Positions 10,976 to 28,589 of a stretch of DNA of 64,000 bases are shown here, in pieces. The DNA is from Escherichia coli (lineage in GTDB: Bacteria; Pseudomonadota; Gammaproteobacteria; Enterobacterales; Enterobacteriaceae). Under the pieces are notes generated by a model. It was not told the DNA's origin. It searched no databases and saw nothing but the letters and a program-made list of their open reading frames with translations. Location of the stretch: NCBI RefSeq assembly GCF_011045215.1, contig NZ_CP049201.1, one strand, 5' to 3'. Position numbers and translations under genes: made by a program. Within the stretch, counting starts at the first letter, position 1. Every line of letters begins with the position of its first letter.

Positions 10976-11277
10976 AGAGCATTCATCGTGTAGTAATAGA
11001 ATTATATTTATATATGGTCGCCACCAGAATGAGTCGTCAACCTACAAAGCCATCCTGGCTTACTGTACGTGTGCGCATGGAACAGGTAACGACTCATTCT
11101 GCTAACGACGTTTACAAGTAATAATCACATACCATTATGTAATACAAAAAAAAGCAGCACTGAAACTGTAACCGTTCAGATATTACAGCATGAAGAAAAA
11201 CAATAGTACCTACAAAGCTGTTCTCCGCGAAAATTCGCCAGTGCTGATAAAGCTATGCCTCGTTTGTTTTACAGGAG

Positions 11278-11349
<72 letters not shown>

Positions 11350-11352
11350 ATA

Positions 11353-11428
<76 letters not shown>

Positions 11429-12687: not shown

Positions 12688-12974
12688 AAATATCCCTCCT
12701 TTCTCCAGATTTCTTGTGTGCGAAAAACACCTTCTGCATGCATCAGGCGCAATTCTTCTTTGGTGTAATCGATGGTTTTTACTCTCCCGTCGATTAAATC
12801 GTGGCACGAGCTACAGGCAATCGCCGCCTGCATATCGTGTGGTTTTGTCGCTGTTCCACACGTCCCCGCCAGCCTGTAATGTGCCAGCACAGACGTTCCG
12901 GGATTGTGATTGCAGTAGCCAGGAATTCTGACCTGGCACATCTGGCCCCGCGCCGCTTTACGCAAATTCACCAT
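12684..12974 (-). CDS. DUF1364-family protein (YbcO-like putative nuclease), 96 aa
   Basis: Cys-rich motifs CQVRIPGYCN...HYRLAGTCGT...IACSSCHD as in lambdoid YbcO/NinG-region proteins. Confidence 0.55.
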   Translation of the reverse strand: MVNLRKAARGQMCQVRIPGYCNHNPGTSVLAHYRLAGTCGTATKPHDMQAAIACSSCHDLIDGRVKTIDYTKEELRLMHAEGVFRTQEIWRKEGYL

Positions 12975-13585
12975 TACGCAAACTCCAGCAGCTGCGCGGC
13001 CACATTTTCGACTTGTTCCGGAGAGGAAAATTTACGGAACAGGATCCAGTTCCACAGCACATTCAGTACAGATTTATAAACCTGCTGAAACTCGGTTTCG
13101 TCCATATTCGCAAACGCGATTGATTTCGCCCTGCGCCCACGGCTACCATCCGGATAAAAATGCTCGGTGTAAAATCCGGCCTGAATGATTACCCACTCGC
13201 GGAAAGCGTCAAATGACTTAAGCAATGCCGTATCCCGGGTTCTGCGTGTCGCAACTGTATTCAGATATTGCTCTGCGGCTTCGCTCAGAGCTGGCGTATG
13301 TTCCCGGCCTACTGATTCACACAGGTAATCAACGAATCCTGATACCATTTCTCGTTCTCGAGGTGTGATCGCCCCACCGATCGGAGTCCAGTAATCGAAT
13401 CCCAGTTGCAGGAGTTTGAAAAAACGCTTGTGGAATGCGTAGTTACGCACACGCTTAAAGTCTGCGTGTATCCACTCACCTATTTTGATTTGATACAGAA
13501 AATCGCAACTCTCCGGCGTCGCCGGGAGAAGTAATCCGGAAGAGGTTTGTTTGACCAGTTGTATATGCGCCATTGCTTTCTCCAA
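12974..13585 (-). CDS. nin-region hypothetical protein (DUF1367-like), 203 aa
   Basis: ORF in the nin-like block upstream of the Q-like gene; family assignment is a recollection, not verified. Confidence 0.35.
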   Translation of the reverse strand: MEKAMAHIQLVKQTSSGLLLPATPESCDFLYQIKIGEWIHADFKRVRNYAFHKRFFKLLQLGFDYWTPIGGAITPREREMVSGFVDYLCESVGREHTPALSEAAEQYLNTVATRRTRDTALLKSFDAFREWVIIQAGFYTEHFYPDGSRGRRAKSIAFANMDETEFQQVYKSVLNVLWNWILFRKFSSPEQVENVAAQLLEFA

Positions 13586-13632
13586 TAGCGCTGTAGGTTG
13601 CCAGGTGTTCAGGCTGGCTTACGAATTATAAC

Positions 13633-13806
13633 TCATTCCCAAACTACCTTGAAACCGAGCCTTTCCAGGTATTCAATGAATGCCTCGATAGATAAAATTA
13701 CATGATCATCAGGAATTAACGTTGCGTAGATAACTTCCCCATTCTCAACGCGCACAGCATAGAGGCCATTTTCACTAAAAATTTCACGCAATTCTTCGAT
13801 TTTCAT
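13633..13806 (-). CDS. small hypothetical protein, 57 aa
   Basis: Internal ATG (MKIEELREIF...) preceded by an AGGA Shine-Dalgarno. Confidence 0.3.
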   Translation of the reverse strand: MKIEELREIFSENGLYAVRVENGEVIYATLIPDDHVILSIEAFIEYLERLGFKVVWE

Positions 13807-13970
13807 CAGCAGAATCCTTCTGGATAAATAACTTTCCCCTGTTTGGGGGCCATCCCTCTTCTCCCTGCGCGCCAATCAAGTAATGAGATTCTATTTCCCC
13901 CGTAATTAGCCTCAAGAACAACAAATCACAAAAACACAAAAAGCCTGTTTGATTAAAAATAATCGTAACA

Positions 13971-13992
13971 AAAAACCCGTCGAAGCGGGTTA
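13971..13992 (-). terminator. rho-independent terminator downstream of the hok-like gene
   Basis: aacccgc-ttcg-acgggtt hairpin followed on the minus strand by a T-run. Confidence 0.5.
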
Positions 13993-14059
13993 AGTACGGG
14001 GGCGTTGAAGATGCCTGACACATCAGAGGTGGCGGGAGATTTCTCTCCCGCCAGGTCTC

Positions 14060-14197
14060 TTACTCCTCAGGTTCGTAAGCTGTAAAGACAGCGACCTCCG
14101 TCTGACCGATTCGGATTTGTACCTCACAGAGGTCTTTCCTCGTTACCAGTGTCGTCACTATGACGGTTAAACAGATGACGATCAGGACGATTAACAT
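14060..14197 (-). CDS. hok: Hok/Gef-family type I toxin (RelF/HokD-like), 45 aa; not in the supplied ORF track
   Basis: Translation MLIVLIVICLTVIVTTLVTRKDLCEVQIRIGQTEVAVFTAYEPEE has the Hok signature: hydrophobic helix, then LCE...EVAVF...YE. Confidence 0.8.
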   Translation of the reverse strand: MLIVLIVICLTVIVTTLVTRKDLCEVQIRIGQTEVAVFTAYEPEE

Positions 14198-14654
14198 CAC
14201 CTTTTGCTACTTTATAGCCTGCTATGCCTTTCATGCATTCTTGGCTATACTAACCTTATACCTACAACACGAGAGACGCAGAAATGACCGTTCATGGCAT
14301 ATCAACAGGCAGTATCGTTCACTTACGTGAAAAAGATGGAGAATGGCTCGTAGTGCACATTCTTAATGACGACATTGTATATGTCCTCAAAAATGCAGAT
14401 TCAGGTGAAGAAATAAAAGTCACTCTTCAAGACATCAATACACCCAATAAATAATCCCTCCACAATCCCACGGGGGGTATTGTTCTTCTTATCATCACAA
14501 CCGCATCACACCACCAATTGCTCATTGCAGACAACACCCCAGCCATGCTACTCCTAAACGGTTTTATAGTGCTATAGCCCCGGATGTCTGTTGTCGTCAA
14601 CAGACATAACAAGCTAAAATAACAACACTCCCCAACAACGAAGGACTTAATACC

Positions 14655-14942
14655 ATGGCTCAGGTCTATTTTGATACTCTGAAATTCGTTGAAACCCTAG
14701 AAGCCGCCGGAATGCCTGCAGCACAAGCTCGCGCCATATCTGCTGCAGTAAAGGATTCTCACGAAGCGGCAGAAGTCGCTACAAAGCGCGACCTGAACGA
14801 TGTTAAAACTGAACTAAAAAATGACATTGCTGCCATTGATGCAAAAATTGATAAACTCACCCTGCAACTGACTGTCAGATTTGGCGGGATGCTCGTCGTT
14901 GCTGTTGGCGCACTGGCAGCCATCATGAAGCTACCTCTTTAA
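14655..14942 (+). CDS. DUF1640-like coiled-coil protein with C-terminal hydrophobic segment, 95 aa
   Basis: Plus-strand gene inside a minus-strand operon; AAGGA Shine-Dalgarno; followed by its own terminator. Confidence 0.5.
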   Translation: MAQVYFDTLKFVETLEAAGMPAAQARAISAAVKDSHEAAEVATKRDLNDVKTELKNDIAAIDAKIDKLTLQLTVRFGGMLVVAVGALAAIMKLPL

Positions 14943-14973
14943 AAAACCAGCCCTAATGGGCTGGCTTTTGTTA
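14941..14973. terminator. bidirectional rho-independent terminator
   Basis: ccagccc-taat-gggctgg hairpin flanked by an A-run upstream and a T-run downstream on the plus strand. Confidence 0.55.
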
Positions 14974-15050
14974 TCCCCAGCAGAAAATCGAATACACCAC
15001 CAGCGCCACCGCCATCGCAATTCCTGCCGTTGTGAATGCTTCAGGCCAGG

Positions 15051-15413
15051 TCATCGTAAAACATCCTCCACGCTTGTCAGTCCGTTTCGCTCCAGGTAGT
15101 CCATCGCCTTATCCGGCAATTTGCAGTCCGGCTTCGCTTTCCTCAGTTGCCAGGCTAACTGCTTTACCTGCATAGTTAACTCGTCGACCAGACGCTGATA
15201 CCCCACTGGTTTGTATTCATAAAATTTACCAACTGGCGCTGCTGCCAGCGATTGCAGTGCAATTTCCAGAACAGCAATATCCATCTTATATGCGCGAATG
15301 AGGTCATGGTCGATTGTGCCTGGTATGCACAGTCTCTGTGATTCAATAGCCTCCTCTGCGTGGGCTATTAACTGCTCTTTGGTAAACCGTTCTTCTTTGG
15401 TCAAAGTCGCCAT
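15051..15413 (-). CDS. hypothetical phage protein, 120 aa
   Basis: ORF in the nin-like block; no recognisable motif. Confidence 0.4.
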
Positions 15414-15587
15414 TTACTCTTCCACTTCGTCTTTTATTTCGTAAATTGAGTAATTGCAGTGATTAAAGAAAACATCAATTGCCTCGTTTTCTATTTCCTC
15501 AGGAGTCGCATCATCATCCACTTCAAATACATCTTCACGCACGTTACCAACAATCCTCGTTTCGATAACTATTTTGAATTTTCGCAT
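15414..15587 (-). CDS. small acidic hypothetical protein, about 57 aa
   Basis: Internal ATG (MRKFKIVIETR...); start uncertain. Confidence 0.3.
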   Translation of the reverse strand: MRKFKIVIETRIVGNVREDVFEVDDDATPEEIENEAIDVFFNHCNYSIYEIKDEVEE

Positions 15588-15713
15588 TGTCTTACCGCCC
15601 TTTCGGGCGGCCTCCTGATGTTTTGAGGGTGCAGAAATCCCTCCGGTTAAGGATTTAATAAAAATCACTTCTGATTTAAATTTCAGTGTCTTATTGTCAG
15701 TTTGTTTATCGCT

Positions 15714-16025
15714 TTATGCCTGAACCTTATTTCTCATCCATACACAAACCGGGCCGTCTTCCGTGTCATGAATGGAGCCAATAAACCACCCATCACCCTC
15801 TGGTCGTTCCGGCTCCCATGCGGAAATATCAGGACCATCCGCATCCGGATTAAAATCATCTTCATCCATTGCGCGAATGGTCCACTGAAGATTATTCGCC
15901 TTCATCCAGGCATTAAATTCTTCCGTCGAAATATACTCCCGGCCATCACAAAATTTTTCATATTCAGGATGTATCCAGCAGCCATATGCATCACGTTCTA
16001 CCGGCATTTCTTTGATTTCGTTCAT
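15714..16025 (-). CDS. hypothetical acidic phage protein, about 103 aa
   Basis: ORF in the nin-like block; internal start MNEIKEMPVERD assumed. Confidence 0.35.
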   Translation of the reverse strand: MNEIKEMPVERDAYGCWIHPEYEKFCDGREYISTEEFNAWMKANNLQWTIRAMDEDDFNPDADGPDISAWEPERPEGDGWFIGSIHDTEDGPVCVWMRNKVQA

Positions 16026-16038
16026 AACATTAACTCCA

Positions 16039-16221
16039 TTAAAATAATGCAAAACAAATTAACCACACCACTACAACCGATGCTATTAACACCCTGATTG
16101 CAAACAGTGGACTGATATGTCGAAAAGGATTTTCCCAGATAATAAAAGCCGCTGCCAGAAATGCACTGATCAGGAAAACAATAACAAACAGCTCAATTTT
16201 GATTATCCAGAACATATTCAC
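16039..16221 (-). CDS. small membrane protein, 60 aa
   Basis: Two hydrophobic helices; stop codon overlaps the upstream gene. Confidence 0.3.
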   Translation of the reverse strand: MNMFWIIKIELFVIVFLISAFLAAAFIIWENPFRHISPLFAIRVLIASVVVVWLICFALF

Positions 16222-16508
16222 TGCATCGCCTTCTGTAAAATAACCGCATGCCCCAGCTTCTCCGCCAGTGCCAGTTCTGCCCTAGCACCTGCCGACCGCT
16301 GCCAGTCTTTCAGCATGTAAATCGCATCCACGCAGCGAATCATTGCCATGCAAATATCCATGTAGTGCGGCTGCGTCAGTCCGTCCGGAAGTACTGCCGG
16401 ATTTAAGACTGTGTGCCCATCCCGTTTCAGTTCCTCTTCCGCCTTGTGGAACGCCTCACGGTTGAAATTTTCATAGCCCGTCATTGGACCGGCGATATAA
16501 ACCCTCAC
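16218..16508 (-). CDS. DUF4406-like protein (nucleoside 2-deoxyribosyltransferase-like fold), 96 aa
   Basis: MRVYIAGPMTG...N...AF motif typical of the DUF4406 / deoxyribosyltransferase-like family. Confidence 0.5.
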   Translation of the reverse strand: MRVYIAGPMTGYENFNREAFHKAEEELKRDGHTVLNPAVLPDGLTQPHYMDICMAMIRCVDAIYMLKDWQRSAGARAELALAEKLGHAVILQKAMQ

Positions 16509-16786
16509 TCCAGAACCCTCCTGTTGAAATAAACGTAGTTATTCACTGTGCGCAACGGCATTCCGAATTTTCTGGCAATTTCTCTCCTGGACACGCCACG
16601 CTGATGCAACTGTCGCACCAGCTCAATATCGCTCTGCGGATATTTTGTTGACTGGTGATAATCACCACGCAACATCATGCCGATACCCAGTTCCCGTGCT
16701 TTCGCCCTGACCGCCGGCTCACTACGACCAATCAGACTGCCGATGCTGTCGACTGTCATCGTTCCCGCACACTGCCGGAGCACCAT
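16505..16786 (-). CDS. HTH DNA-binding phage protein, about 93 aa; start uncertain
   Basis: Two HTH-like segments (SIGSLIGRSEPAVRAKARELGIG and VSRREIARKFGMPLRTV). Confidence 0.35.
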   Translation of the reverse strand: MVLRQCAGTMTVDSIGSLIGRSEPAVRAKARELGIGMMLRGDYHQSTKYPQSDIELVRQLHQRGVSRREIARKFGMPLRTVNNYVYFNRRVLE

Positions 16787-16824
16787 GATTTCAGCCCTGC
16801 ACCACTTCTTCCAGCCACTCACCG

Positions 16825-17604
16825 CTACCGTTCTCCGGTGGCGATAATCTGTCTGACAATATCCTTGTGCCTGTACAGTTCCCGCAGCGCCGCGCAGACT
16901 CGCTCCCACTTCCGGACATGATTTTTCGCCCGACGCAGTTCGCGGTTTGCCATATGCAGTGATGGTAAAACCAGGTCATCAGCTCGCGTTTCAGTAAACG
17001 ATGGCAGCGAATGCACAATGTCCGCCACAGTTTCTGTTTTAATATCTTCCTGTGTTGCAGCCTCCTGTACTGGTAACGCAACACATGCAGGTTGAGGAAA
17101 GGCTTTACCATCAGTTTCCGCTACCGATGCAGCTTTCGGCTCTGCTGGTAAATTATCGCCCGGCATGCAGTAACGAAATTTACCGTTCTGATTAACGCGA
17201 ATCAGACGACCTTTACTGATTGCCATTGCCAGCGTTGAAGCCACTTTGCGTGATGTGGTGCCGAAAAACGTAGCCAGTTCATCCGCCGTTTGTGGGCCAC
17301 GTTGTTCAATCGTCGCAGTTAAATCGCACTCCGAAATTTTCGCGACTGTTGCCGTGGCGGTTTCTTCCGGCAGTTCTGCCTGCTCTGGCTGTTCCTGCTG
17401 AACGTTGTTATCAGCCACACGCCAGGTGTATACGCTTTTATCAACGAAACCAGCCTTTTTCAGTTCCCACAGCTCGTTCAGTACCTCTTCACGACTGATA
17501 TCAAGTCGCGCAGCCAGTTCTACCGACGTGGCTTTTCCCATTGCTTTCAGTGCGTCAAAAACAGTCTCCATTAAAATTTCCTCCCGGTAAAAATCACTTC
17601 GCAA
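16825..17604 (-). CDS. hypothetical phage protein (YdaW / DUF1627-like position), 259 aa
   Basis: N-terminal winged-helix-like region; directly downstream of the DnaC-like gene as ydaW is in Rac. Confidence 0.4.
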
Positions 17605-19484: not shown

Positions 19485-19787
19485 TCACCCCCTAAAAATT
19501 ACGTGGCGCAGCGGTTGAGCTTTGCTGTAGTCGATCTCATCGCCATACTCAATATCAAGAGCTTGTCCCTGCGCCAGTTCCATCCACCGAATGTGATCTG
19601 CGGCTTTTTCTTTATCTTTGATATTGATGAACAACAGCGTTGACGAGGGATACCCGTTAACAAGATGGCGATGCAGAGAGAGTCGTATCGCATACCAGGC
19701 AACATTTCGGGCTATACGCTGAAGCAATGTTTCGGCTTCCAGTGTTTTAAGTCGGTATTTTTTCAGTTCATATTTTTCCATCACCAC
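19485..19787 (-). CDS. hypothetical protein, 100 aa
   Basis: ORF with AAGGTGA Shine-Dalgarno; lies between the ydaT-like and O-like genes where Rac has none. Confidence 0.4.
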   Translation of the reverse strand: MVMEKYELKKYRLKTLEAETLLQRIARNVAWYAIRLSLHRHLVNGYPSSTLLFINIKDKEKAADHIRWMELAQGQALDIEYGDEIDYSKAQPLRHVIFRG

Positions 19788-19793
19788 ATCACC

Positions 19794-20216
19794 TTAATGA
19801 ACAACAACAGAATCGCCGGACGAACCGCCGCCGCTGAAATGCGCTTTACGGTAAACGGCCTGGACTGCGTCATCATGCGCATCAATTGCCGTACTCAGTG
19901 CGTCCTGTGCCGCAAGTAATGCCCGTCGTTCCAGGGTATCGAAGATGCTGAGTCGGTGGCGCAGCTCGCGCGGAAGGATTGCCAGAATTGCTGGGATCAG
20001 CTTCTGAATTTTTTCTCTTTGCGTTTTCGTTTCACCTTTCAACCAACGGTGATAGATATTCTGCTGATTGTTCCAGTCCTTGCCTGGTACCAGGGGCAAT
20101 TCGCCGCCCCCCTGGCGCAGATATTCTTCAGTAATTGCATTGGCTACCCATGCCTGCCCTTTTTCGGCTGCCAGGGCTAACAGCACTGATTCGATGTGCT
20201 CATGCCTGATTTTCAT
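19794..20216 (-). CDS. ydaT: YdaT-like protein, 140 aa
   Basis: Second gene of the cro-side operon divergent from the repressor; length and position match Rac YdaT. Confidence 0.55.
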   Translation of the reverse strand: MKIRHEHIESVLLALAAEKGQAWVANAITEEYLRQGGGELPLVPGKDWNNQQNIYHRWLKGETKTQREKIQKLIPAILAILPRELRHRLSIFDTLERRALLAAQDALSTAIDAHDDAVQAVYRKAHFSGGGSSGDSVVVH

Positions 20217-20502
20217 GAATCAACTCCTGTGCATTTTGTGTGTTAGTCTTACATCCAACAGGTAAACCATCGGTCGGATTCGGGTAGATATCAGGCCGAA
20301 GTTCATGAGGTGTAACCTCGAAATTCGTAGCCTCAGCGATACGCAATACCTTTTCGGGGCTTAACTGACTACGGCCAGTAGCTACGAGGCTAATCATTGA
20401 TTGCGAACAACCAGCGAGCGCGGCCAAACAAGACTGTCGTACACGATTTTTTTTCAAATATTCATCTAATGTCATAAGGGTCACCTTAGTAATGCCTGTC
20501 AA
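20200..20502 (-). CDS. ydaS: Cro-like HTH regulator (YdaS-like), about 100 aa
   Basis: HTH motif SCLAALAGCSQSMISLVATGRSQLS; divergent from the repressor gene across a 77-bp AT-rich region. Confidence 0.55.
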   Translation of the reverse strand: MTGITKVTLMTLDEYLKKNRVRQSCLAALAGCSQSMISLVATGRSQLSPEKVLRIAEATNFEVTPHELRPDIYPNPTDGLPVGCKTNTQNAQELIHENQA

Positions 20503-20579
20503 AATATTAACTATATTAATTTATATGATCAATACCCATATCAGTTTGAGATTATGAGTTGTGTTCATAAAATGGTGGT
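20503..20579. promoter_or_regulatory. divergent promoter/operator region between the repressor and cro-like genes
   Basis: 77-bp AT-rich intergenic with repeated ttaactatattaa-like half-sites between divergent HTH regulators. Confidence 0.4.
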
Positions 20580-21044
20580 ATGAGAAGAAAACGCGAAGAA
20601 ATCGCATCGCCAGAAGCTACGCAGCGTCTGCGCGCAGTCTGGGATGCAAAAAAAAGAGAGCTCAAACTGACTCAGGAGCTTGCTGCTGAGCTGATGGGCT
20701 TTGAGACTCAATCCACAGTTAGCCACTATCTCAACGGAAAGGCTCCACTAAACACTGATGCAGCATTAAAATTCGCTGTATTACTAAGAGTTAAGCCTGA
20801 AGAGTTGAGGCCTGATTTAGCTGATCTGATGAATTACGTCCGTTCTTCAGGAACTTATGACGAAAGTTTCGAAGGCGAAGGTTGGCGGATGGTTAACAAG
20901 CAACAAGCTGATTTACTGGATCTTTTTGAAATCCTACCCGAATCAGAAAAAGCAAAACTAATCGAAAGGCTTAAAGGTCAGAATGAACTCTACAAAGAAG
21001 CGTTTGAAAAGATGCTGGCAGCTCAGAAACGCATGAAGAAATAG
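20580..21044 (+). CDS. racR: prophage repressor with cI-like N-terminal HTH and no LexA-type peptidase domain (RacR-like), 154 aa
   Basis: HTH segment LKLTQELAAELMGFETQSTVSHYLNG resembles lambda cI N-domain; C-terminus is a short helical domain; followed by a terminator. Confidence 0.6.
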   Translation: MRRKREEIASPEATQRLRAVWDAKKRELKLTQELAAELMGFETQSTVSHYLNGKAPLNTDAALKFAVLLRVKPEELRPDLADLMNYVRSSGTYDESFEGEGWRMVNKQQADLLDLFEILPESEKAKLIERLKGQNELYKEAFEKMLAAQKRMKK

Positions 21045-21063
21045 CTCCCGCAACCTCGTAACT

Positions 21064-21090
21064 AAACCGCCATTTTTGGCGGTTTTTTTG
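21064..21090 (+). terminator. rho-independent terminator after the repressor gene
   Basis: aaaccgcc-atttt-tggcggttt hairpin followed by a run of 7 T. Confidence 0.6.
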
Positions 21091-21162
21091 TCCCCTCTGC
21101 CCCCTCACCTTACTTTTTTATCAAAAAAAACACTAAAAATTTCATTACGATAGTGCATTTTT

Positions 21163-21189
21163 ATCAACAAAATGCATATTTATGTTGAT
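21163..21189. promoter_or_regulatory. operator-like palindrome in the putative early-left promoter region
   Basis: ATCAACA-n13-TGTTGAT inverted repeat in AT-rich DNA upstream of the first early-left gene. Confidence 0.3.
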
Positions 21190-21279
21190 CACTCATATGA
21201 ATATAACTAATATTATTGCAGAAGTAGCACGGCGCTGTAGGTTTTAGTTCCGCCACCCGGCGTTAAGGGGAGAGATAAG

Positions 21280-21585
21280 ATGACATTTACTCAGGGTATT
21301 GACCCGCTAGAAACGAATAATGCTGTATTTTGTCTGGCGTATGAATTGTCTGTACAGGCATCAACAATGGCAAAGGAAAGAGAGCTAACTCCAGGGCAGG
21401 CACGTCTCGCACTGGAACTCGCCAGCCGGGTATCAGTAGCAAAAAAAATCGCACCAGCCGTAATGGCACGAAACCTGGCTGATGCAATTACAGATCTCAG
21501 GTCACTACAACCATACAATTATCATGTCGAAGAGGTATTAGAAAAATTAATCGCTGCTGCCGACGCCATCATTGATGAACTGTAA
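21280..21585 (+). CDS. hypothetical protein, 101 aa, first gene of the early-left operon
   Basis: AAGGGGAGAG Shine-Dalgarno; occupies the position of N in lambda but is not Arg-rich. Confidence 0.4.
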   Translation: MTFTQGIDPLETNNAVFCLAYELSVQASTMAKERELTPGQARLALELASRVSVAKKIAPAVMARNLADAITDLRSLQPYNYHVEEVLEKLIAAADAIIDEL

Positions 21586-22195
21586 TAATTGATATGCGGG
21601 AATTTCTATTCCTGAGAGATGCATTTTTCACGCCCGGACAACGCCCGGCAATTGCCAGATTCAGTTTTTCACGCTGCTCTGGCGTAAGAAGTTTAACAAG
21701 TTCTTCAAGAACAAGCGCGGTAGCCTCTAATCTGGCGGAAAGATAATCAATATTTTTGTGTTGAGATTGAATAGGCATAAGCAATTCCTTACTGGTTGTG
21801 TGAGAGCGCCAGTATACCACCGAGCCTGAAGTGGTAAAAAAAGACAAGCACACAACACGAAAGCGTACGGAGGAGGTGTTTTTCCCTTAGAAGGCTTGTC
21901 GTTAAATTTCTTCGACCGTGCGCTTCCGGTTGTGAATAACAACATTGCTGTGTGTAGTCTTGGCGGCATCAGTTTTTTCTTGAAGTTCGGCTGATGTCCG
22001 CCCTTTTTAAAGTGAATTTTGTGATGCGGTGAATGCGGCTCAGCGCACGCGGAACAGTTAAAAGGCCAGTTGACCTCCGTATTGGTTCTTATGGGTGGGT
22101 TCTCTGTATCCGGCGTTAATTGTTAACTGGTTAACGTCACCTGGAGGCACCAGGCACCGCATCGACAAAATTCATTTGTGAAAATGGAGATAATT

Positions 22196-22417
22196 ATGAT
22201 TGCTCATCACTTCGGAACTGATGAAATACCACGTCAGTGTGTGACTCCTGGCGATTATGTTCTTCATGAAGGTCGGACATATATCGCCTCAGCAAACAAT
22301 ATTAAAAAGCGAAAACTTTATATTCGTAGCCTGACTACAAAAACATGCATTTCTGACTGCATGATTAAAGTCTTCCTCGGTCGTGATGGTTTACCTGTAA
22401 AGGCGGAGTCATGGTGA
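22196..22417 (+). CDS. kilR: KilR-like cell-division inhibitor, 73 aa
   Basis: [35 protein letters not shown]...; length and position match Rac KilR. Confidence 0.7.
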
Positions 22418-22587
22418 TGACTAAGAAAATAAAATGTGCTTACCACCTTTGCAATAAAGGAATTGAAGAAAGCAAAAGCATTAAAAGACCACTTCATTTC
22501 ATGCGTGGAGTTATCCCAACGACGGAAATGAAAAAATATTGTAGTGAAAATTGTGCCGAAAAAGACCAGATGGCACACGAACTCTAA
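22417..22587 (+). CDS. ydaE: YdaE-like small Cys-rich protein, 56 aa; not in the ORF track
   Basis: ATG overlaps the kilR stop (TGATG); translation [56 protein letters not shown]. Confidence 0.7.
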   Translation: MTKKIKCAYHLCNKGIEESKSIKRPLHFMRGVIPTTEMKKYCSENCAEKDQMAHEL

Positions 22588-22661
22588 TTAACTGACTATT
22601 CGAAACTGAATTTATGCCAGCAATGGCAGGGATTCTTTCAACCTTAAAAAAGGAAACAGCA

Positions 22662-22961
22662 ATGCACAAGCATATTAAATGTGAAATTGAACTTGATGTT
22701 ATTAACGATTCTCTCGCCGAATTTAAATGCGGGAATACATTACATGGTTTTATTCAGATTTCCCAAAAAGAAAACATTACGGTAATTATTGATGGTGGTT
22801 ACGTTCTGGGAACATTTGATTGTGATGCATGTGCCCTTAAAGAAGTCGCATTACTCGCAGCTCGTATTGAAGAGGCTGACAAGAAATACGGTATCAGTTA
22901 TCAACGACTGAAAGAACTCTCTTATATCGCATCATCAGTTCATTTCTTTTATGCAATCTGA
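22662..22961 (+). CDS. racC: RacC-like protein, about 99 aa
   Basis: Position between ydaE and the recE-like gene as in Rac; start taken at MHKHIKCEIE. Confidence 0.5.
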   Translation: MHKHIKCEIELDVINDSLAEFKCGNTLHGFIQISQKENITVIIDGGYVLGTFDCDACALKEVALLAARIEEADKKYGISYQRLKELSYIASSVHFFYAI

Positions 22962-22985
22962 ATCTGAGTTGAGGTTAAAAAAATA

Positions 22986-24887
22986 ATGAGCATAAAACAA
23001 CACTTCCTGTTACGGAAAGCGAAAAAATCATCCGGTGAACCTGACGCAGTTCTGTGGGCAAGCGACGATCTCGAATCGACCAGTGCCACTCTGGACTACC
23101 TGATTGTTAAGTCAGGTAAAAAACTGAGCAACTATTTTAAAGCTGTTGCTACGAATTTTCCTGTCGTTAACGACCTGCCCCCAGAAGGGGAGATCGATTT
23201 TACGTGGTGTGAACGCTATCAACTCGGCAAGGACTCCATCACCTGGGAACTAAAACCAGGTGCAGCACCAGACGACGTTCACCATCAGGAGAATATCCCG
23301 GAAACTGAAGAACTGGCTGGAGACCAGGAAGAAAACGCGCAGGCGGACGCTCACGGGGATTGCCAGGATTGCGAAGTTCCTGTAGCCACACTCAGTCTTA
23401 CTCATCGTTTCCTTCATCTCTTCTTTTTCGGTCAGATGGAAGGTGGAAAATACAGTAGTCACGCCACGCCGGAACAGCGCAATACCGTCATCCGGATGGA
23501 GCTGGATACGGAGGACAGCTACCTCCAGAGTCTGCTTACAGCAGTACGCTCTCATCCTGAACTGGATAAGCTGACAAACCACCATCTTGGCAGACTGGCG
23601 GAGTCTGTATCCAGAGTGTTTACCCACACAGAAACCCGTTGCATCAGCCCCGCTGAATTCGACAAATTCATTTCCACCTGGATGAAAACTGATTATCTGG
23701 ATCAGGGATTACTGACAAAAGAATGGGCGAAGGGAAACTGCGTATCTGAAATCAATCGCACCCCGTCGGGCGCTAATGCCGGTGGCGGTATCCTTACCGA
23801 CCGTGGAGAAGGTTTTGTCCATGATGATGCATCAGTAGCGCGTGACGTAGCCGCTGGCGTACTGGCACGTTCAATGGATATCGATATTTACAATCCACAT
23901 CCAGCACACGCTAAACGTATTGGGGAAATTGTCGCTGAAAATAAACCGCCATTTTCTGTTTTTTTCAGCAAATTCATCACCATGCCTGGCCACAAGGATT
24001 TCTCCCGCGCCATCGTGGTTGCGTCCGTGAAAGAAGCGCCAGTCGGTATAGAGGCTACCCCACACCATGTCACTGAATATCTGAACAGGGTGCTGACTGA
24101 AACCGATCATGCCAACCCTGATCCGGAAATCGTGGATATTGCCTGCGGTCGCTCCTCTGCCCCGATGCCACAGCGTGTAACAGAAGAAGAAAAACCGCAA
24201 CCATCTTGCGCAATGGCAGATGAACAGGCAACGGCTGAAACAGTGGAACCGGATACAAGTGAACATCATCAGGACACGCAGCCGCTGGATGCCAAGTCAC
24301 AGGCCGATGCGAAATATCAGAAACTGCGGGAAGAACTCCATGAAGCCCGGAAAAACATTCCGCCCAAAAATCCTGTCGATACAGACAAAATGCTGGCAGT
24401 CCATCGCGGTGAGTTCGTTGAAGGAATTAGCGACCCGAATGATCCGAAATGGGTGAAGGGAATTGAAACCCGCGATTCTGTGAACCAGAACCTGCCAGAA
24501 ACGGAAAAAACCAGTCAGGATGTGAAACAACCTGAGCCAGTAGTGCAACGGGAACCGGAAATAGTCTGCACCGCCTGCGGTCAGAGCGGTGGCGGCAACT
24601 GCCCTGATTGTGGCGCGGTGATGGGCGACGCAACATATCAGGAAACATTCGATGAAGAGAATCAGGCTGAAACTCAGGAAAATGATCCGGAGGAAATGGA
24701 AGGCACTGAACCATCATTAGAAAAACTCGACTGGAAAAGACAAGTGGTGATTGCGGCTGTTTATGGTTTGTGTGCGAATCCTGCAGGTATAGCCTCAGCG
24801 CCATTAATTCCGGGTATTGCAATGATGATTGCCAACAAGCTTGAAAATTTTGGGGTGACGGATGATGAGCACATACCCGATTTTTGA
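22986..24887 (+). CDS. recE: RecE N-terminal region homolog lacking the C-terminal exonuclease domain, 633 aa
   Basis: N-terminus [26 protein letters not shown] and internal blocks ([50 protein letters not shown]) match my recollection of Rac RecE residues 1 to about 600; ORF ends where the gam-like gene begins. Confidence 0.55.
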
Positions 24888-25161
24888 TCGCATTGAAGAG
24901 CTGGCATGGTCACGCCACTACCAGCAGATCGTTCGCGAAGAAAAAGAAACGGAGCTGGCAGACGACCTGGAAAAAGGTCTACCCCAGCACCTGTTTGAAT
25001 CGCTCTGCATCGACCATTTGCAACGCCACGGTGCCAGCAAACAGGCAATCAGTCGCGCATTTGATGACGATGTTGAATTTCAGGAACGCGTGGCGGAACA
25101 CATCCGGTACATGGTTGAAACCATTGCTCGTCACCAGGTTGATATTGATTTGAAGGTATAA
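24862..25161 (+). CDS. gam: Gam-like RecBCD inhibitor (short form), 99 aa
   Basis: [45 protein letters not shown]...HQVDID closely matches lambda Gam. Confidence 0.8.
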
Positions 25162-25166
25162 AACAA

Positions 25167-25952
25167 ATGAGTACAGCACTTGCAACACTGGCCGGGAAGC
25201 TGGCTGAACGTGTCGGCATGGATTCTGTCGACCCACAGGAACTGATCACCACTCTTCGCCAGACAGCATTTAAAGGCGATGCCAGCGATGCGCAGTTCAT
25301 CGCATTGCTGATCGTCGCCAACCAATACGGCCTTAATCCGTGGACGAAAGAAATTTACGCCTTCCCTGATAAGCAGAACGGCATCGTTCCGGTGGTGGGC
25401 GTTGATGGCTGGTCCCGCATCATCAATGAAAACCAGCAGTTTGATGGCATGGACTTTGAGCAGGACAATGAATCCTGTACATGCCGGATTTACCGCAAGG
25501 ACCGTAATCATCCGATCTGCGTTACCGAATGGATGGATGAATGCCGCCGCGAACCATTCAAAACCCGCGAAGGCAGAGAAATCACCGGACCGTGGCAGTC
25601 GCATCCCAAACGAATGTTGCGGCATAAAGCCATGATTCAGTGTGCCCGTCTGGCCTTCGGATTTGCTGGTATCTATGACAAGGATGAAGCCGAGCGCATT
25701 GTCGAAAATACCGCATACACTGCAGAACGTCAGCCAGAACGCGACATCACTCCGGTTAACGATGAAACCATGCAGGAGATTAACACTCTGCTGATCGCCC
25801 TGGATAAAACATGGGATGACGACTTATTGCCGCTCTGTTCCCAGATATTTCGCCGCGACATTCGCGCATCGTCAGAACTGACACAGGCCGAAGCAGTGAA
25901 AGCTCTTGGATTCCTGAAACAGAAAGCCACTGAGCAGAAGGTGGCAGCATGA
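25167..25952 (+). CDS. bet: Bet (Red-beta) single-strand annealing protein, 261 aa
   Basis: Near-identical to lambda Bet over its length ([37 protein letters not shown]...). Confidence 0.9.
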
Positions 25953-26629
25953 CACCGGACATTATCCTGCAGCGTACAGGGATCGACGTGAGAGCTGTCG
26001 AACAGGGGGATGATGCATGGCACAAATTACGGCTCGGCGTCATCACCGCTTCAGAAGTTCACAACGTGATAGCAAAGCCCCGCTCAGGAAAGAAGTGGCC
26101 TGACATGAAAATGTCCTACTTCCACACCCTGCTGGCTGAGGTTTGCACCGGTGTGGCTCCGGAAGTTAATGCTAAGGCGCTGGCCTGGGGAAAACAGTAC
26201 GAGAACGACGCCAGAACCCTGTTTGAATTCACTTCCGGCGTGAATGTTACTGAATCCCCGATCATCTATCGCGACGAAAGTATGCGCACCGCCTGCTCTC
26301 CCGATGGTTTATGCAGTGACGGCAACGGCCTTGAACTGAAATGCCCGTTTACCTCCCGGGATTTCATGAAATTCCGGCTCGGTGGTTTCGAGGCAATAAA
26401 ATCGGCTTACATGGCCCAGGTGCAGTACAGCATGTGGGTGACGCGAAAAGATGCCTGGTACTTTGCCAACTATGACCCGCGTATGAAGCGTGAAGGCCTG
26501 CATTATGTCGTGGTTGAGCGGGATGAAAAGTACATGGCGAGTTTTGACGAGATGGTGCCGGAGTTCATCGAAAAAATGGACGAGGCACTGGCTGAAATTG
26601 GTTTTGTATTTGGGGAGCAATGGAAATGA
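25949..26629 (+). CDS. exo: lambda-type Exo (Red-alpha) 5'-3' exonuclease, 226 aa
   Basis: Near-identical to lambda Exo ([40 protein letters not shown]...). Confidence 0.9.
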
Positions 26630-26856
26630 GCGCAGCCACAAAGCTCACAGGAGAAAAACCAGTGCGATACACAAAAATTAAACCATGTCCATTTTGTGGT
26701 TGTCCATCAGTAACGGTGAAAGCCATTTCAGGATATTACCGAGCGAAGTGTAACGGATGCGAATCCCGAACCGGTTATGGTGGAAGTGAAAAGGAAGCAC
26801 TCGAAAGATGGAATAAACGAACCACTGGAAATAATAATGGAGGTGTTCATGTATAA
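26620..26856 (+). CDS. ralR: RalR-like restriction-alleviation protein / type I toxin
   Basis: [48 protein letters not shown] matches Rac RalR. Confidence 0.7.
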
Positions 26857-27037
26857 AATTACCGCCACTATTGAAAAGGAAGGTGGCACTCCTACTAACT
26901 GGACAAGATATTCAAAATCTAAACTAACGAAATCAGAATGCGAAAAAATGCTCTCAGGTAAAAAAGAAGCGGGCGTTTCCAGAGAGCAGAAAGTAAAACT
27001 GATAAATTTTAATTGCGAGAAACTTCAGTCCTGGTGA
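26837..27037 (+). CDS. ydaC: YdaC-like small protein; start uncertain
   Basis: [23 protein letters not shown]...; position between ralR and xis as in Rac. Confidence 0.5.
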   Translation: MEVFMYKITATIEKEGGTPTNWTRYSKSKLTKSECEKMLSGKKEAGVSREQKVKLINFNCEKLQSW

Positions 27038-27136
27038 ATTGCATTGTATTCAAATTAAAACTTCATAGCTGATTATTAATAATCAACATCGGGCGTCAAT
27101 TTCAGTCTAACATTGGCGCCTGCCAGAGGTGATGCG

Positions 27137-27352
27137 ATGGCACAAGTAATCTTTAATGAAGAGTGGATGGTTGAATACGGCCTGATGCTTCGCACTGGTC
27201 TGGGGGCCAGACAAATTGAAGCATACCGCCAGAACTGTTGGGTGGAAGGCTTCCACTTCAAACGAGTATCTCCTTTAGGGAAGCCAGACAGTAAGCGAGG
27301 GATTATCTGGTACAACTATCCAAAGATAAATCAGTTTATCAAAGACTCATGA
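27137..27352 (+). CDS. ydaQ: excisionase-like protein (YdaQ/XisR-like), 71 aa
   Basis: [32 protein letters not shown]...; immediately upstream of integrase. Confidence 0.65.
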
Positions 27353-27353
27353 T

Positions 27354-28589
27354 ATGTCTAAATTACCAACAGGTGTCGAGATTCGAGGTAAATACATTCG
27401 CATCTGGTTCATGTTTCGAGGAAAACGATGCCGGGAAACATTGAAAGGCTGGGAGGTTACTAACAGTAACATTAAAAAAGCCGGGAATTTAAGAGCGTTG
27501 ATAGTTCATGAAATCAATTCCGGTGAATTTGAGTATTTAAGACGTTTCCCCCAGTCCGGCACTGGGGCAAAAATGGTGACAACTAGGGTCATAAAAACGT
27601 TCGGGGAGCTTTGTGATATCTGGACAAAAATTAAAGAGACAGAGTTAACAACAAACACAATGAAGAAAACGAAATCACAATTAAAAACACTCAAGATAAT
27701 AATTTGTGAGAGTACCCCGATATCGCATATTCGTTATAGCGATATCTTAAACTACCGGAATGAACTGCTGCATGGAGAAACGCTTTACCTGGATAATCCA
27801 AGATCCAACAAAAAAGGAAGAACCGTGCGCACAGTTGATAACTATATCGCCCTACTCTGTTCGCTGTTACGTTTTGCGTATCAGTCGGGATTTATATCAA
27901 CCAAACCATTTGAAGGAGTAAAAAAATTACAGCGAAACAGAATAAAGCCTGACCCGTTATCTAAAACAGAATTCAATGCATTAATGGAAAGTGAAAAAGG
28001 ACAGAGCCAGAACTTATGGAAATTTGCCGTTTACTCAGGACTTCGTCACGGGGAACTGGCAGCTCTGGCGTGGGAGGATGTGGATCTCGAGAAGGGAATT
28101 GTGAATGTCAGAAGAAACCTGACGATACTTGATATGTTCGGTCCCCCAAAAACAAATGCCGGGATCCGGACAGTAACACTACTGCAGCCTGCTCTTGAAG
28201 CACTGAAGGAGCAATACAAACTGACCGGACATCATCGCAAAAGCGAAATCACCTTTTATCATAGGGAGTACGGCAGAACCGAAAAGCAAAAACTGCATTT
28301 TGTTTTCATGCCCAGGATGTGTAACGGAAAACAGAAACCTTATTACTCGGTAAGCAGTTTGGGTGCGAGATGGAATGCAGCAGTAAAACGTGCTGGTATT
28401 CGCCGCCGTAATCCGTACCATACGCGGCATACTTTTGCCTGCTGGCTGTTGACGGCAGGAGCGAACCCGGCGTTTATAGCCAGCCAGATGGGGCATGAAA
28501 CTGCGCAGATGGTGTATGAAATTTACGGTATGTGGATTGATGACATGAACGACGAACAGGTAGCCATGTTGAATGCGCGGTTATCGTAA
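27354..28589 (+). CDS. intR: tyrosine-type site-specific integrase (IntR-like), 411 aa
   Basis: C-terminal catalytic region with R...HTRHT...Y residues; last phage gene before ttcA. Confidence 0.85.
   Translation: MSKLPTGVEIRGKYIRIWFMFRGKRCRETLKGWEVTNSNIKKAGNLRALIVHEINSGEFEYLRRFPQSGTGAKMVTTRVIKTFGELCDIWTKIKETELTTNTMKKTKSQLKTLKIIICESTPISHIRYSDILNYRNELLHGETLYLDNPRSNKKGRTVRTVDNYIALLCSLLRFAYQSGFISTKPFEGVKKLQRNRIKPDPLSKTEFNALMESEKGQSQNLWKFAVYSGLRHGELAALAWEDVDLEKGIVNVRRNLTILDMFGPPKTNAGIRTVTLLQPALEALKEQYKLTGHHRKSEITFYHREYGRTEKQKLHFVFMPRMCNGKQKPYYSVSSLGARWNAAVKRAGIRRRNPYHTRHTFACWLLTAGANPAFIASQMGHETAQMVYEIYGMWIDDMNDEQVAMLNARLS

Follow-up and report, generated by a model that had tools for sequence, protein, structure and literature searches.

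Layout of the immunity region

Positions 19794-21091 of a 64-kilobase (kb) stretch of Escherichia coli chromosomal DNA (the window, by which we mean the whole stretch analysed) hold the immunity switch of a Rac-type lambdoid prophage located at the Rac attachment site ttcA. The repressor gene, an analogue of lambda cI, is divergent from a cro-like gene for a helix-turn-helix (HTH) protein of the YdaS family, across an intergenic region of 104 base pairs (bp). The cro-like gene has a good Shine-Dalgarno sequence at its ATG and overlaps ydaT by 17 nucleotides (nt; Table 1). The gene positions and sizes given in a preliminary description of the locus are correct, and its reading as an immunity switch is borne out by the divergent repressor and cro genes, the repeated operators and a second operator cluster. 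We describe here the make-up of the repressor, which lacks an autocleavage domain, and a homologue, 57 amino acids (aa) long, of the antirepressor Rem, which is encoded outside the immunity region and is probably its antagonist.

Table 1. Positions, in the window, of the genes and control elements of the switch and of the rem homologue.
Feature	Position	Strand	Remarks
Short-form rem homologue, candidate antirepressor gene	13633-13806	-	57 aa; Shine-Dalgarno sequence present; slot just downstream of hok
Promoter-like site upstream of the rem homologue	13888-13915	-	TTGAGG, 16 nt, TAGAAT; consensus match only; after the hok terminator (13974-13991)
ydaT	19794-20216	-	140 aa; putative CII-analogue transcription factor
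cro-like gene, YdaS-family HTH	20200-20475	-	91 aa from ATG; putative Cro analogue
YdaT box CTGATTTTCATGAATCAA	20206-20223	.	ydaT ATG in the spacer; inside the 3' end of the cro-like gene
Right operator/promoter region	20504-20573	.	Operator sites 20505-20521, 20524-20540, 20553-20569
Candidate P_R	TTGATC 20532-20527, TAATAT 20509-20504	-	Spacer 17 nt; read from the sequence
Candidate repressor promoter	TTGAGA 20546-20551, TAAAAT 20568-20573	+	Spacer 16 nt; promoter scan 10/12
Repressor gene	20580-21044	+	154 aa; CI analogue
Intrinsic terminator of the repressor gene	21064-21091	+	9-pair stem (21064-21085) with 5 G-C pairs, then a T run
Left operator/promoter region	21162-21213	+	Operator sites 21162-21178, 21181-21197, 21196-21212; just past the repressor terminator
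Candidate P_L	TTGATC 21185-21190, TAATAT 21208-21213	+	Spacer 17 nt; hexamers and spacing same as P_R; read from the sequence
Second YdaT-box-like palindrome CTGATTATTAATAATCAA	27069-27086	.	One mismatch; 50 nt upstream of the xis ATG (27137)

A 17-bp motif, TATGA-N7-TCATA, recurs at six sites that flank the repressor gene, three on each side. When up to one mismatch is allowed, the motif has six matches in the 64 kb, four of which fall inside the two control regions (about 340 bp in total). The operator sites cover the -35 hexamer, the spacer and the -10 hexamer of both candidate P_R and candidate P_L, and they also overlap the candidate promoter of the repressor gene. The -10 hexamer of the latter stops 6 nt before the ATG, which implies a leaderless repressor mRNA, as demonstrated experimentally for lambda cI and PaaR2 (PMC8630535). 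Six relatives from E. coli, Hafnia and Phytobacter, with repressors down to 54% identical, keep the -10 and -35 hexamers of P_R and the position of the -10 hexamer before the ATG, and their operator half-sites vary, which is the usual pattern of heteroimmune phages. In its sequence, the locus thus has the features of a lambdoid immunity region: a short divergent intergenic region with operators over both promoters, and a second cluster at P_L.

A repressor with a lambda CI-type DNA-binding domain and a DicA-type tail

HTH_3 is the sole Pfam family matched by the repressor (E 2.9e-9). Residues 12-82 resemble the N-terminal domain of lambda CI in phmmer searches against the PDB entries 3kz3 and 1lmb (E 4e-8 to 2e-7, with 4e-8 for 3kz3), and a Foldseek search with the AlphaFold model returned lambda cI N-terminal domains as top matches, with template modelling (TM) scores of 0.71-0.82, normalised to the target. 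The model is helical throughout, with a mean predicted local distance difference test score (pLDDT) of 80; it predicts an HTH domain at about residues 11-89, a low-confidence flexible linker (90-106) and a helix-turn-long-helix (107-153). The nearest N-terminal relative in the phage collection is a Stx-phage CI with 52% identity over residues 15-89. This protein runs on into an S24 peptidase, which was recognized with an E-value of 2e-28 and served as positive control in the same scan.

The S24 peptidase fold is a beta fold. Pfam gave no S24 match to the window repressor even at a maximum E-value of 10, neither Ala-Gly nor Cys-Gly dipeptides occur anywhere in its sequence, and only about 70 residues lie C-terminal to the HTH domain. 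The proposal of the preliminary description that this repressor lacks an autocleavage domain therefore stands; a cryptic peptidase, whose presence would have contradicted it, was detected neither by sequence nor by fold prediction. The final 50 residues are similar to the C-terminus of DicA (NCBIfam, E 1.6e-8; BLASTP, 30% identity and 66% positives over residues 105-154 only). Against the DicA model NF007257 of NCBIfam the repressor obtains 34.4 bits, from its C-terminal 50 residues only, and does not reach the cut-off of 101 bits.

The 33 homologues retrieved from databases at E<=0.001 come from E. coli, Salmonella, Hafnia, Enterobacter, Phytobacter and Dickeya; all of them contain HTH domains only, and the complete ones are about 150 aa long. 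A C-terminal motif, LLxLFxxLPxSE, is common to at least four heteroimmune groups of repressors encoded next to the same ydaT, and all the non-RacR repressors found at this position have it. Such a distribution fits a portable oligomerisation or receiver module. As judged by these alignments, the repressor is a lambda CI-type DNA-binding domain joined to a DicA-type helical C-terminal module that takes the place of the S24 peptidase. It belongs to the known class of non-cleavable lambdoid repressors, and it is neither an S24-family protein, nor RacR, nor DicA.

A short Rem homologue next to hok

DicA has no Ala-Gly site and is antagonised by Rem, which is encoded beside hokD in the Qin prophage; Rem derepresses DicA targets 165-fold, and no trigger is known for Rem itself (PMC10448788). 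Since the window repressor carries the C-terminal module of DicA, we examined the slot adjoining hok and identified there an open reading frame (ORF) encoding a short form of Rem (Table 1). The first 27 aa of this protein are 67% identical to those of K-12 Rem, and the two proteins align from end to end except for an internal gap of about 28 aa. Both belong to PHROG 340 (E 9e-18 for the short form, 4e-21 for K-12 Rem), and all homologues of the window protein match Pfam PF27490, whose family name 'Rem' was taken from precomputed annotation. In RefSeq entries of close relatives, only the first 26 codons are marked, as an incomplete pseudogene; the ORF is intact in these genomes and 98-100% identical. 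The predicted structure is moderately confident (pLDDT 74) and has an alpha-beta-beta-alpha layout.

The C-terminal half of the short Rem also weakly matches a Rha-family protein of RM9088 in its C-terminal part (L002 15088-15186; 33% identity over 33 aa, E 3e-4) and KilA-N proteins of Hafnia (L088 2546-3433 and L089 3335-4234; E 2e-3 to 4e-3), a hint that Rem-like segments also occur inside larger regulator proteins.

Several elements upstream of rem were considered and set aside. In the window, an upstream ORF of 15 codons terminates at the rem start, in TGATG; it lacks conservation in K-12 and in strain ABU 83972. Rfam reports a weak isrK match at 13970-14051(-), which scores 25 bits where the gathering score is 50; it sits between hok and the rem homologue, covers the hok terminator and is probably just the terminator hairpin. 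In Gifsy-1, IsrK lies upstream of an antirepressor gene. The conserved rem leader folds no better than shuffled sequence (z 0.42), and we claim no RNA element there.

Association of the short Rem with one repressor family

We fetched 80 loci on viral contigs with a YdaT at least 96% identical, 55 of which had enough flanking sequence to be informative, and sorted them by repressor type and by gene content after hok. A short-form Rem homologue is present in six of the seven loci that encode the window repressor family (97-100% or 70% identical). All other repressor types pooled have a Rem homologue in 2 of 48 loci, both of the long form: one of the 15 loci with a 139-aa repressor starting with MVHEDK and the single locus with a DicA-like repressor (93% identical). 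None was found with RacR (0/13) or with the 139/129-aa repressors starting with MEKENEK or MKTIAEQ (0/19). Fisher's test of the window family against all others gives p 6.5e-6, a value that overstates the evidence because the loci are related and non-independent. Only some of the repressor types with the LLxLFxxLPxSE motif come with a Rem-family gene, so that the module alone does not predict Rem.

The pairing of repressor and rem is maintained with differing replication modules, of the DUF1376/IstB type in the window and of the DnaT-like/P type in RM9088 and OkiPb01716. Strain ABU 83972 has it in another prophage, where the repressor is 70% identical and rem is 91% identical at the DNA level. 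Hafnia alvei and Phytobacter have it as well, with repressors 78% and 54% identical and Rem proteins of 59 and 63 aa, respectively.

In the loci of the MEKENEK/MKTIAEQ type (L020-L075 and similar), the slot after hok is occupied by another conserved ORF of 70-83 aa, which belongs to PHROG 1813, of unknown function, and is present in 19/19 informative loci. This ORF may encode the antirepressor of that immunity type.

Control of rem and search for other antirepressors

The preliminary description argued that induction would need an antirepressor or another route. This is supported, the repressor being non-cleavable, and the search of the prophage that it suggested yields a candidate within the window, the short Rem. 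A scan of the ORFs at 12974-16909 and 21280-28589 brought up none of the domains Ant, KilA-C, Rha and Bro; to the left of 12974, the ORFs for lysis, Q and structural proteins were not scanned one by one.

In the Gifsy prophages, the repressors are not cleaved and are inactivated by small LexA-controlled antirepressors, whose genes lie behind a terminator, outside the immunity region (PMC3121763). We looked for LexA boxes with a matrix that we assembled from 16 SOS boxes of E. coli, which themselves score 13.2-26.8 bits. The rem gene of Phytobacter ursingii (L091 1531-1760) is preceded by a promoter, TTGCAC-17-TATAAA, and then by a near-consensus LexA box, TACTGTTATTATATACAGTA, with 23.9 bits, which corresponds to the Gifsy design of a LexA-controlled antirepressor (PMC3121763). 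No LexA box is present at rem in E. coli and Hafnia, which have in common a conserved leader, GCGCGCAGGGAGAAGAGGGATGG.

The strict pattern CTGT-N8-ACAG occurs once in the window, at 14588-14603, which is about the chance expectation, and the site has a poor matrix score; LexA control of the window rem and of the neighbouring plus-strand ORF was dropped on the matrix result. The site lies within a palindrome with 10-nt arms, ATGTCTGTTG-tcgt-CAACAGACAT, that overlaps a promoter-like site in the segment 14585-14942. Downstream of the palindrome, an isolated ORF on the plus strand (14655-14942) encodes a protein of 95 aa, CCDC90-like at the N-terminus and hydrophobic at the C-terminus, and a hairpin comes after it. 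This arrangement looks like a separately regulated moron.

The YdaS-family protein, YdaT and the comparison with Rac

YdaT is 96% identical to its K-12 counterpart; it matches Pfam PF06254 YdaT_toxin (E 5.5e-11), PHROG 163 'CII-like activator' (E 4.5e-36) and the solved YdaT structures 8bt1 and 3c4r. The cro-like protein matches Pfam YdaS_toxin (E 2.2e-10, 40.6 bits against a cut-off of 30) and PHROG 35 (E 6e-28). It aligns with K-12 YdaS over 50 residues only, with 42% identity, and has no similarity to DicC; by these comparisons it is a member of the YdaS family, and more probably a distant relative of K-12 YdaS than an orthologue. The repressor gives no significant BLASTP alignment with K-12 RacR (E 4.6). 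When the DNA is aligned with that of K-12 Rac, homology begins exactly at the YdaT box and ends at the ydaT stop codon. On this alignment, ydaT and its binding site form a conserved cassette, with a different repressor, cro gene and operators on one side and a different next gene on the other. The prophage is a heteroimmune relative of Rac.

The preliminary description was right to assign the two neighbouring genes to the YdaS and YdaT families, and its identification of the trio with that of K-12 Rac holds for the orthologous YdaT, not for the repressor, which is unlike RacR, nor for the distantly related YdaS protein. As the trio is not the K-12 trio, results on the essentiality of racR cannot simply be transferred. 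Its further suggestion of a toxin/antitoxin-type circuit is outdated. This framing rests on two papers from 2017, in which racR was essential in K-12 and overexpression of ydaS/ydaT was toxic (PMC5700373, PMC5700377), and it was contested by Jobling (2018), since the repressor and early regulators of any lysogen behave in this way (PMC5917428). The YdaS and YdaT proteins of CP-933P were subsequently found to be non-toxic and to behave like Cro and CII (Jurenas 2021, PMC8630535), and the most recent study terms them transcription factors, YdaS being the Cro analogue and YdaT the CII analogue (Wons 2025, PMC11879457). The 'toxin' names in Pfam are a legacy, and nothing in the window sequence speaks for a type II toxin-antitoxin module.

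The K-12 YdaT box, ATGATTCATGAAAATCAA, was mapped by footprinting over the ydaT start codon and, through a reverse promoter, increases the expression of racR (PMC11879457); the YdaT homologue of CP-933P activates an analogue of P_RE (PMC8630535). The window box, TTGATTCATGAAAATCAG, has one mismatch to TTGATT-N6-AATCAA and occupies the same position as the K-12 box, within the last codons of the cro-like gene. By analogy, YdaT would have a CII-like role in the window, with a target promoter located in the non-homologous cro DNA. The only other site with at most one mismatch in the 64 kb is the palindrome CTGATTATTAATAATCAA upstream of xis, which is identical in K-12 Rac and is a possible counterpart of the CII-dependent P_I of lambda; the 2025 paper on YdaT does not mention xisR, integrase or excisionase (PMC11879457). 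A further YdaT-box-like site near rem (13949-13966) has two mismatches, is not conserved in relatives and was rejected.

Other genes of the prophage

To the right of the switch lies a P_L-type operon (kilR-like, ydaE, an N-terminal-only RecE and lambda-type gam/bet/exo), then xis and int (27354-28589), with the host genes ttcA and dbpA beyond int. To the left are the replication genes (DUF1376 and IstB-like), a DUF1627 gene, the nin region, hok, a Q-like gene, and lysis, terminase and head genes. The prophage looks complete as far as the window reaches, its left end being beyond it. Among 5,426 complete E. coli genomes, 74 have the same immunity type, in each case as a single chromosomal copy, and phage Rac-SA53 carries a 70%-identical version.

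The early-left operon (22986-26629) is a mosaic: a 633-aa protein with only the N-terminal Exonuc_VIII domain of RecE is followed by gam of the lambda type, then, where bet would be, by a gene of the RecT family, and by a gene for a YqaJ-type exonuclease, whereas Rac has a recE-recT pair. Directly after P_L are a 101-aa ORF (21280-21585, +) and a convergent 94-aa ORF (21569-21853, -), neither with a family match; the former is found with several immunity types and is thus not specific to the window repressor. The ORF directly 3' of ydaT (19485-19787, -; about 98-100 aa) has no match in Pfam, PHROG or NCBIfam; many Rac-type loci, belonging to several immunity types, have it with 97-98% identity, but K-12 Rac lacks it. 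The prophage also carries two tRNA genes, Gly(tcc) and Thr(tgt), between the Q-like gene and the lysis genes (11277-11428, -).

Proposed mechanism and alternatives

Taken together, the data are best explained by a ttcA-integrated Rac-type lysis/lysogeny switch that is wired like lambda cI-cro-cII, with a non-cleavable repressor subject to inactivation of the Rem type (rough probability 0.6). By analogy with known phages, the repressor would bind the 17-bp sites, shut off P_R and P_L and autoregulate its own gene. P_R would drive the cro-like gene and ydaT and continue to the replication genes, and P_L would drive the kil and recombination genes and int. The YdaS-like protein would act as Cro, and YdaT as CII, binding the box over its own start codon, firing an antisense promoter toward the repressor gene and perhaps acting also at the second box upstream of xis-int. 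Induction would bypass RecA-stimulated cleavage: as homology and co-occurrence suggest, the short Rem would bind the repressor and inactivate it, as Rem does with DicA, and as GfoA and GftA do with the Gifsy repressors. The short Rem is probably the cognate antirepressor of the window repressor.

A wider and more tentative proposal, to which we give somewhat less than even odds, is that the 57-63-aa short Rem proteins, of which the NCBI pipeline makes a 26-codon pseudogene fragment, are the cognate antirepressors of a distinct repressor family with a CI domain and the LLxLFxxLPxSE motif, that this module or the conserved linker receives the antirepressor, and that the input of rem has been rewired between lineages, with LexA in Phytobacter and a conserved leader without a LexA box in E. 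coli and Hafnia.

Several observations weigh against Rem-type induction of a lambda-like switch. The hexamers of P_R and P_L are below the threshold of the promoter scan and were placed by inference. The predicted fold of the short Rem has no PDB match at E<1 and no informative structural match. L059 is a locus of the window repressor family that lacks a Rem homologue within 10 kb, and the co-occurrence could in part reflect the shared descent of linked modules. No site in the window reaches 13.2 bits with the LexA matrix, the top site (12.0 bits) being inside a coding region, so that LexA does not account for a trigger of rem in this prophage; K-12 rem likewise has no known signal. Finally, rem is downstream in the direction of P_R transcription and, as a delayed-early gene, might do no more than reinforce induction without starting it.

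One alternative is a switch without any dedicated inducer, which would flip only at random or because the repressor is generally unstable (heat, proteolysis, nucleoid proteins), as in the Rem-independent behaviour of DicA/DicC, the Rem homologue doing something else. DicA targets are switched on spontaneously in about 1% of cells, and also by urea or heat, independently of Rem (PMC10448788); PaaR2/YdaS is bistable and does not respond to mitomycin C (PMC8630535); and the lack of a LexA box in the window is in line with this view. We consider it unlikely, given that the short Rem is tied to the window repressor family across genera and intervening modules, that the Phytobacter rem has a LexA-controlled promoter, and that an apparently complete prophage is expected to retain an induction route. 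The antirepressor could also come from elsewhere, either from another prophage in the cell, as in the crosstalk between Gifsy-2 and Fels-1, or from the part of the prophage beyond the window, where its left end lies. Antirepressors that act in trans are documented (PMC3121763), and RM9088, with a 100%-identical repressor, encodes in its P_L operon a Rha-family regulator that is absent from the window. With a cognate-looking candidate already in cis and none of the four antirepressor domains in the ORFs scanned, such an origin has only a small chance of being correct.

Two other explanations concern the proteins of the switch themselves. In a toxin/repressor addiction circuit, the YdaS-like protein and YdaT would be toxins, and the repressor would mainly silence them, its loss being lethal. 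The Pfam family names, the findings on racR and on ydaS/ydaT overexpression in K-12 (PMC5700373, PMC5700377), and the filamentation and death of a subpopulation caused by YdaT (PMC11879457) all favour this view. It is nevertheless quite improbable, because the two genes occupy the exact cro and cII positions of a prophage that seems complete and has O_R/O_L operators and promoters, YdaT binds DNA at a defined box as an activator (PMC11879457), and the CP-933P proteins are Cro/CII analogues without toxicity (PMC8630535). Moreover, loss of the repressor is expected to be lethal in any lysogen (PMC5917428), and the window repressor is not RacR. We found no point in support of cryptic self-cleavage, in which the C-terminal part would be a divergent peptidase and the repressor RecA-sensitive; the N-terminal domain is akin to that of cleavable CI proteins. 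The contrast between no S24 match at E<=10 and 2e-28 in the control, the helical model as opposed to the beta fold of S24, the mere 70 or so residues past the HTH domain, the lack of Ala-Gly and the HTH-only architecture of 33/33 homologues make self-cleavage extremely improbable.

Comparison with known switches

The DicA-DicC-Rem system of Qin in K-12 (Ragunathan 2023, PMC10448788) resembles the window switch in its short non-cleavable repressor with the same C-terminal module, its divergent cro-like gene, its second repressed promoter 3' of the repressor, and its Rem-family gene beside hok in the nin region. The window differs in having a Cro-like protein of the YdaS family, not DicC, and a Rem shorter by about 28 internal residues. 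RacR-YdaS-YdaT of K-12 Rac (PMC11879457; Krishnamurthi/Bindal 2017) shares with it the prophage type, the ttcA site, the gene order, a 96%-identical YdaT and the box over the start codon. The repressor is non-homologous and the operators differ, hence the two are heteroimmune; the K-12 element is a 23-kb remnant, whereas that of the window is apparently complete.

PaaR2-YdaS-YdaT of CP-933P (PMC8630535; Prolic-Kalinsek 2023, PMC9986795) also combines a CI-like repressor devoid of a peptidase motif and translated from a leaderless mRNA, as predicted for the window, with YdaS as Cro, YdaT as CII and a TTGATT-N6-AATCAA box. By analogy, bistability is to be expected in the window switch. No toxin-antitoxin pair follows the window repressor, unlike in CP-933P, and the operator sequence differs. 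The window YdaT matches the solved structure of CP-933P YdaT with a phmmer E-value of 9e-8 only; K-12 YdaT, 96% identical to the window protein, is about 30% identical to that of CP-933P (PMC11879457).

With GfoR/GtgR of the Gifsy prophages (Lemire 2011, PMC3121763), and also with 186 Tum and N15 AntC, the window shares a short repressor resembling the N-terminal part of CI and a small antirepressor (here a candidate) encoded outside the immunity region after a terminator. The Gifsy antirepressors are LexA-controlled; the Phytobacter relative has a LexA box and the window has none. The Gifsy repressors showed no detectable similarity to the window repressor in the search of the phage collection. 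Lambda CI and the Stx-phage CI have a homologous N-terminal domain, three-site O_R and O_L and a promoter layout that implies a leaderless repressor mRNA; their S24 self-cleavage and oligomerisation domain is replaced in the window repressor by a helical module of 50 aa.

Implications

The switch itself, which would work like the DicA/DicC/Rem and Gifsy systems, will not surprise a specialist. What is modestly new is the chimeric domain composition of the repressor, its pairing with a short-form Rem and the lineage-specific wiring of rem to LexA. Labels such as 'toxin YdaS/YdaT' are misleading in annotation, and conclusions about the essentiality of racR should not be extended to heteroimmune prophages of the Rac type.

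It is common for enterobacterial prophages to have a repressor that cannot be cleaved; many of these prophages harbour genes for toxins or virulence, and the inducer is unknown for most of them. The present locus adds an uncharacterised immunity type, shows that one and the same kind of CI DNA-binding domain occurs with a self-cleaving peptidase in some proteins and with a DicA-type tail in others, and singles out one candidate partner, the Rem homologue of 57 aa, which is annotated at present as a fragment of a pseudogene. If the wider proposal on short Rem proteins and the rewiring of rem is true, E. coli Rac-type prophages with this immunity would respond to a non-SOS signal.

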